DNA of 64,000 nt, from the NCBI RefSeq assembly GCF_016026235.1, contig NZ_CP065613.1; one strand, given 5' to 3'. The first letter of the stretch is position 1; every line of letters begins with the position of its first letter. This stretch comes from Escherichia coli (lineage in GTDB: Bacteria; Pseudomonadota; Gammaproteobacteria; Enterobacterales; Enterobacteriaceae). This document shows, piece after piece, positions 20,540-21,261 of this stretch. Both the position numbers and the translations under genes were made by a program. The notes under the pieces were generated by a model. The model was given only the letters and a program-made list of their open reading frames with translations, was not told the origin of the DNA and did no database searches.

Positions 20540-20565
20540 AATAAAAACTTGCAAAATCAATTGGT

Positions 20566-20612
20566 TTACCTTTAATCCCTGTCACGTTACGCGCGTGGCA
20601 GAGGCGTTACGG
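20566..20612. other. prophage/host att junction within the 5' region of mlrA
   Basis: Host mlrA-frame sequence (…PVTLRAWQRRYGLLKPQ) begins here; upstream in-frame stop at 20542-20544 lies in phage DNA. Confidence 0.5.
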
Positions 20613-20613
20613 A

Positions 20614-21261
20614 TTGCTGAAACCGCAACGGACAGACGGCGGTCATCGGCTGTTCAACGATGCCGATATTGACCGGATCCGCGAGATCAAACGCTGGATC
20701 GACAACGGCGTGCAGGTCAGCAAAGTTAAAATGCTGCTCAGTAATGAAAATGTTGATGTGCAGAACGGCTGGCGCGATCAGCAAGAAACATTACTGACTT
20801 ACTTGCAAAGCGGCAATCTGCATAGCCTGCGAACGTGGATCAAAGAGCGCGGTCAGGATTACCCCGCCCAGACGCTCACCACGCATTTGTTTATTCCTCT
20901 GCGTCGACGGCTTCAGTGCCAACAACCGACTCTCCAGGCGCTGCTGGCGATCCTCGACGGCGTACTGATCAACTACATCGCCATCTGTCTGGCTTCGGCA
21001 CGTAAAAAACAGGGTAAAGATGCGCTGGTGGTTGGCTGGAATATTCACGATACCACCCGTCTGTGGCTGGAGGGCTGGATTGCCAGTCAACAAGGATGGC
21101 GCATTGATGTCCTCGCCCACTCGCTCAATCAACTACGCCCTGAACTGTTCGAAGGCCGTACATTGCTGGTGTGGTGCGGTGAAAATCGAACCTCCGCCCA
21201 ACAACAGCAACTCACCAGTTGGCAAGAACAAGGCTATGATATTTTCCCACTCGGCATTTAA
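20614..21261 (+). pseudogene. mlrA: mlrA (yehV) MerR-family regulator, 5'-truncated by prophage integration
   Basis: 215-aa frame equals MlrA from Leu29 onward; native start and N-terminal HTH codons absent at this junction. Confidence 0.8.

Follow-up and report, generated by a model that had tools for sequence, protein, structure and literature searches.

The left boundary of mlrA (yehV) in the window, which is the whole 64-kb stretch of E. coli DNA that was analysed, is almost certainly an attR that arose when a temperate lambdoid phage integrated site-specifically into the 5′ end of the gene. Judged from its sequence, mlrA is present here as a headless copy, cut at its 5′ end by the prophage. 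In E. coli, mlrA switches on curli and biofilm production, and its product MlrA is a MerR-family activator of csgD. The phenomenon itself is already known: the crossover core is the same as in the O157:H7 case and the integrase differs from the O157 one by 4 aa, and it is the cargo, the host lineage and an IS911 copy in xis that differ from that case.

First of all, the reading frame that ends at TAA 21259–21261 was found by translation to contain an in-frame stop, TAA, at 20542–20544. Past this stop the frame reads KLAKSIGLPLI and then PVTLRAWQRRYGLLKPQ... as far as TAA 21259–21261, that is to say, the phage-encoded KLAKSIGLPLI runs straight into MlrA residues PVTLRAWQRRYGLLKPQRTDGGHRLF.... 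When intact MlrA was compared with the 64-kb window by tblastn, the sole match was residues 17–243 at 20578–21258, with 100% amino acid identity, and the remnant has just 6 nucleotide differences from an intact mlrA allele, all of them synonymous. The remnant (20578–21261, + strand) is thus composed of native codons 17–243 and the stop codon, without the native promoter, ribosome-binding site and start codon. The first-pass annotation had put the in-frame stop at 20542–20544 and recognisable MlrA sequence from about 20575 onward, and both coordinates agree with the translation and with the tblastn start at 20578. It had also counted about 28 displaced codons; the displacement is real, but the count is not, as phage sequence stands in place of 16 native codons, a number already implied by MlrA being recognisable from about 20575. 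The figure of 28 is the number of native codons ahead of the first ATG, GTG or TTG in the remnant, namely TTG 20614, which is native codon 29. From this TTG runs the longest ORF with a canonical start (20614–21261, + strand), encoding an N-terminally truncated MlrA of 215 aa, with AGAGG 9 nt upstream.

Two findings that would have spoken for an intact gene were sought, and neither was made. A native start is not rebuilt at the junction, there being no ATG, GTG or TTG between the stop at 20542 and TTG 20614, and no intact second mlrA was found by tblastn within the 64-kb window, nor in the near-identical genome FDAARGOS_943, which likewise has one mlrA place only. The native upstream region and codons 1–16 of mlrA were not found within the window, where the first 42 bases of the native gene gave 0 matches with up to 3 mismatches allowed. 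On the other side of the remnant, the chromosome is undisturbed: according to the annotation of collinear loci, yohO (21322–21429, + strand) is the first undisturbed gene past mlrA, followed downstream by yehW/X/Y-osmF on the minus strand.

The crossover was located by a five-way alignment with relatives, among whose inputs were the unoccupied locus of UCPROB-002 (attB) and both prophage ends of the EIEC genome CFSAN029787. A 21-bp crossover core, CCCTGTCACGTTACGCGCGTG, is common to attB, attL and attR, and in the window it lies at 20577–20597 (+ strand), where it begins at base 3 of mlrA codon 16 and ends at base 2 of codon 23. To the left of it is a phage-derived attR arm of 37 bases (20540–20576, + strand), which holds the TAA at 20542–20544 and no canonical start codon; this arm is identical in CFSAN029787, nearly identical in VT1-Sakai and unrelated to attB. 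Between the end of the integrase gene and the start of the mlrA sequence there are 38 bases. When 5,426 complete E. coli genomes were searched by megablast, alignments to unoccupied loci began only at window position 20572 and ran rightward, the sequence left of the junction matches only integrase-carrying genomes, and the int–mlrA junction is present in 457 genomes. The phage origin proposed earlier for the sequence before the MlrA frame is confirmed by these matches and by the intact phage tyrosine integrase of 428 aa encoded there (19253–20539, + strand; stop TAA 20537–20539), which reads toward mlrA.

The reciprocal attL, with the 5′ stub of mlrA, was found in CFSAN029787 and FDAARGOS_943 and not within the window. 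In CFSAN029787 it reads ATG GCG ... CGC GCG TGA, a 22-codon mlrA stub whose stop is created by the phage arm, and in these two closest genomes the stub adjoins btsS (yehU), 46 kb and 57.6 kb from attR. The absence of the mlrA 5′ end from the window fits an out-of-window attL, in line with the earlier placement of the missing part at the other prophage end, and the attL of this prophage is expected as ...GATATTAACCCTGTCACGTTACGCGCGTGACGCAAC... beside btsS, out of the window. Sequence comparison shows that the phage tyrosine integrase recombined the 21-bp core of attP with its identical counterpart in codons 16–23 of mlrA, splitting the gene into a promoter-bearing 22-codon stub at attL and codons 17–243 fused to 37 phage bases.

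The right-hand part of the lambdoid prophage occupies 1–20576 and extends past the left edge of the window. Its genes in the window include KilA-N, lysis genes, four tRNAs, Q, ninH, a helicase, Rha/BRO/ash, cI/cro-like regulators, early genes, xis and int. A four-tRNA cluster downstream of Q (3564–3874, − strand) consists of Gly-TCC, Thr-TGT, Arg-TCT and a tRNA with anticodon CAT, the last of which is called Met by ARAGORN and Ile in the RefSeq annotation of relatives. No stx1AB was found at its usual site between Q/tRNAs and holin, and there is no stx-like ORF among the ORFs of 1–6400; from the holin ORF (3056–3271) to tRNA-Gly (3564) there are about 290 bases, which leaves no room for stx.

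The xis–int–attR segment is 97.4–98.3% identical in nucleotide sequence to the best 12 phage records listed, which include VT1-Sakai, YYZ-2008, JLK-2012, BP-4795 and two Stx2a phages of O157:H7. The first-pass annotation had named mlrA/yehV as an integration site of Stx1-type phages in O157:H7, and VT1-Sakai (Sp15; CP-933V in EDL933), at yehV/mlrA of O157:H7, bears this out with a near-identical integrase, the same att core and an annotated truncated yehV. Like the window, it has its att core inside mlrA codons 16–23, an int in the same orientation, abutting the 3′ part of mlrA, and a headless remnant; xis–int–att is 98.3% identical in nucleotide sequence, and its integrase differs at 4 of the 428 residues. 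In the GenBank record of VT1-Sakai, 20 of the 21 core bases are annotated as attachment site, and the adjoining sequence is annotated as 'truncated protein of E. coli K12 YehV'. Unlike VT1-Sakai, the prophage in the window has no stx between the tRNA cluster and holin, and its xis is split by IS911; outside xis–int–att it is not closely O157-like, and the host chromosome is not that of O157:H7. O157:H7 493/89 had also been considered as the O157 comparator, covering 50% of window 1–20540 at 87% identity. However, its matching integrase adjoins a DUF72 gene and yecN, that is, another integration site and not Sp15, so VT1-Sakai was used instead.

The best match to the prophage is the 46-kb mlrA prophage of EIEC CFSAN029787, which covers 81% of window 1–20540 at 99.3% identity (blocks 99.1–99.5%). 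Its integrase, with 0 amino acid differences, and its attR are identical to those of the window, its xis is without an IS, and the prophage has annotated head, tail, lysis and replication genes. As for the chromosomal flank, FDAARGOS_943 alone among the complete genomes exceeds 99% identity to it, with 99.8% over 24 kb, and window 21001–41400 (20.4 kb) is 99.985% identical. FDAARGOS_943 is rich in IS elements (ISSfl3, IS600, ISSso6 and IS1), and its mlrA prophage measures 57.6 kb; it differs from the window in that IS600 sits upstream of its xis, which is intact, its int is frameshifted and IS66 is present in many copies. Because its nearest neighbours are FDAARGOS_943 for the chromosome and CFSAN029787 for the prophage, the host appears to belong to an EIEC/Shigella-like lineage, not to O157:H7. 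Lesions of the csg operon and of rpoS are common in invasive lineages. The EIEC/Shigella version of the mlrA prophage is present and annotated in public genomes, and no description of this prophage turned up when the literature on prophages at mlrA/yehV of EIEC or Shigella was searched.

Upstream of int, the xis gene is interrupted. A 5′ fragment of codons 1–49 of 84 (17713–17859, + strand), identical to the first 49 residues of the CFSAN029787 xisR product, is followed by a 1,249-bp IS911 of the IS3 family inside xis (17860–19108, − strand) and then by the xis 3′ fragment (19109–19219, + strand), which is collinear with CFSAN029787 xis past the IS911. The element is flanked by a 3-bp target duplication, GTA (17857–17859 and 19109–19111), is 99.6–99.9% identical to copies annotated as 'IS3-like element IS911 family transposase', and carries orfA (18734–19072) and orfB (17868–18707), so that size, the orfA/orfB pair with its −1 frameshift arrangement, repeats and duplication all agree with IS911. 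Its terminal repeats, TGAAGTGG.../...CCACTTCA, were read by eye from the sequence; an inverted-repeat finder run with its default seed did not report the IS911 ends. The IS near int had also been considered as IS600 or IS629, after the annotation of FDAARGOS_943, but BLAST identified it as a different element at a different site, namely IS911.

The window consequently holds no complete excision module of xis and int: int is intact, but IS911 cuts xis at codon 49 of its 84. Excisive recombination in lambda needs Xis, and by analogy the integrase alone, with xis split by IS911, would not excise the prophage efficiently; since the excisionase is split, the prophage is probably locked in place and the interruption of mlrA fixed in this strain. 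The broken xis of the window and the frameshifted int beside an intact xis in FDAARGOS_943 suggest that excision has apparently been disabled independently in two relatives. In 'active lysogeny', prophages in regulator or coding genes act as reversible switches, precise excision restoring the gene. Here too a regulatory gene is interrupted, but the excisionase gene is inactivated by IS911, and because of this a reversible switch is unlikely in this strain.

The loss to MlrA falls on its DNA-binding domain. Residues 3–72 of MlrA align with the DNA-binding domains of the CarH, GlnR, MtaN, TipA, MerR and CadR structures, and in intact MlrA the Pfam family MerR_1 covers residues 4–72 and PF00376 (MerR, the HTH proper) residues 5–42. 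In the 215-aa ORF only model positions 26–68 of MerR_1 are matched and the PF00376 match is gone, so that no complete MerR-type HTH is left, and MlrA_helical (PF22270) and MlrA_C (PF22267) are full length, with E-values of 1.6e-31 and 2.5e-34. The replaced residues YTIGEVALLCDIN are presumably the first helix and turn of the helix-turn-helix, going by MerR-family folds. No promoter-like (sigma-70-like) site was found on the + strand of 19000–20614 in a weak scan whose counts were no higher than those of shuffles, and the same weak scan found no terminator-like hairpin between int and the remnant. With its native promoter, translation start and first HTH helix missing, the remnant would make no DNA-binding MlrA, and the sigma-S/MlrA-dependent activation of csgD, hence curli and cellulose, would be lost or much reduced. 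With no terminator to separate it from int, the remnant, if expressed at all, would depend on int or early phage transcripts running on into it, and translation, begun no earlier than TTG 20614, would give an N-terminally truncated protein.

Three other readings of the junction region were weighed against this one. That the junction came from misassembly or from a rearrangement without a phage was raised since IS elements are abundant in the lineage. Nothing in favour of it was found, the junction recurs to the base in the VT1-Sakai record and in other, independent complete genomes, and relatives carry a matching attL with the reciprocal half of mlrA and an identical 21-bp core, so its probability is practically negligible. 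It is also very improbable that the junction rebuilds a working chimeric MlrA, starting at ATT 20560 and having the phage residues IGLPLI as its new N-terminus. The frame is indeed open from 20545, and in both occupied genomes examined PGAP places exactly there a 233-aa 'HTH-type transcriptional regulator MlrA' (WP_038340404.1, WP_029208330.1) with no pseudogene flag; its coordinates are 20261–20962 in locus L001 of FDAARGOS_943 and 47403–48104 in locus L003 of CFSAN029787, corresponding to window 20560–21261 (+ strand). However, ATT is a very weak start, the sequence upstream of it, aaaacttgcaaaatca, has no Shine-Dalgarno, and no promoter-like site was found. Moreover, the phage segment falls 5 residues short of the length of the one it replaces and shows no alignment to the first HTH helix, and a nearly identical junction in O157:H7 abolishes curli, which are complemented by mlrA in trans (PMC3874044, PMC5931665). 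The 233-aa ATT-start 'MlrA' is very probably a homology-driven annotation artefact.

A remaining reading concerns the remnant, not the junction, and is unlikely, although more can be said for it. It supposes that the remnant is not inert, and that read-through gives a truncated MlrA, 215 aa long if begun at TTG 20614 and otherwise shorter, which does not bind DNA and modulates the curli switch in another way, such as titration of MlrA's protein partners, so that the regulator would be coupled to prophage induction. In its favour, the helical and C-terminal domains are intact and 100% conserved, with synonymous changes only; AGAGG stands 9 nt upstream of TTG 20614; and the stretch between int and the remnant is free of any terminator that the scan could find. 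In induced O157:H7 PA20, the increase in distal mlrA RNA ranged from about 9-fold by RNA-seq to 62-fold by qRT-PCR, and recombinant MlrA fragments altered Congo-red affinity (PMC5931665). Yet the high distal-mlrA expression in PA20 came without a rise in csgD (PMC5931665), the IS911 in xis, upstream of int, may lower read-through from early transcripts, and perfect conservation may merely mean a recent insertion; the six synonymous differences are compatible with either recent insertion or retained function. As far as the work of Uhlich et al. (2016) is described in PMC5931665, recombinant truncated MlrA changed Congo-red affinity and did not restore biofilm. Because the affinity was partly restored in that work, 'null' may be too strong a word for truncated MlrA.

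The consequences of such an integration have been documented experimentally. Prophage occupancy of mlrA/yehV in O157:H7 was described by Shaikh and Tarr (2003) and Uhlich et al. (2013), as cited in PMC5931665, and among the O157:H7 strains studied a prophage was present in mlrA in 53 of 55, and curli, Congo-red binding and biofilm were lost. Of 19 non-O157 STEC strains, 4 had an occupied mlrA, and mlrA supplied in trans restored curli in two of these (PMC3874044). The link drawn in the first-pass annotation between occupancy and reduced csgD/curli is therefore well founded for O157:H7 and some non-O157 STEC, where strains with a prophage in mlrA no longer make curli or bind Congo red, a defect that can be complemented with mlrA in trans (PMC3874044, PMC5931665). 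It has also been reported, in work cited in PMC5931665, that precise excision of the prophage can restore mlrA in PA20.

Occupancy of mlrA is thus an established cause of missing curli and biofilm in many pathogenic E. coli, and it bears on environmental persistence and on food-safety phenotypes. The present instance leaves current understanding unchanged. What it adds is that the integration module serves a phage without Shiga toxin in an EIEC/Shigella-like background, a putative example, by analogy, of prophage locking mediated by an IS, a corrected codon count, exact coordinates for the att core and a warning on the 233-aa 'MlrA' annotation. Because the remnant is annotated as intact MlrA in both occupied genomes examined and the junction occurs in 457 of 5,426 genomes, gene-presence surveys that rely on annotation could score occupied genomes as mlrA-positive and miss the disruption. 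A wider scenario can also be put together, in which a toxin-less, probably ipaHe-bearing prophage of an EIEC/Shigella-like lineage splits mlrA by means of the O157 Stx1-phage module, the IS911 knockout of xis turns a potentially reversible curli/biofilm switch into a permanent pathoadaptive loss, and the C-terminal two-thirds of the MlrA protein, perfectly conserved, might remain as a csgD modulator that is driven by the phage and does not bind DNA. Taken as a whole, this scenario is quite unlikely.

As regards the cargo, stx is absent within the window, and by comparison with relatives the cargo is otherwise probably ipaHe at the far end. In the mlrA prophages of CFSAN029787 (L003 3037–4679) and FDAARGOS_943 (L007 33558–35203), ipaHe lies near attL and is annotated as frameshifted in both; it is the chromosomal ipaH2202 of Shigella (PMC9046306). 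The prophage in the window may carry ipaHe at its out-of-window far end as well. The CFSAN029787 prophage has nothing that corresponds to two stretches of the window, 604–1712 and 8414–9936. The second, with Rha/ash/BRO-like ORFs, matches FDAARGOS_943 instead, which is the usual mosaicism of lambdoid modules. In CFSAN029787 a RelE/ParE-ParD toxin–antitoxin pair lies between the lysis genes and KilA-N (L003 28529–29063), and the counterpart of this region falls in or near window 604–1712, the stretch that is unaligned to L003.
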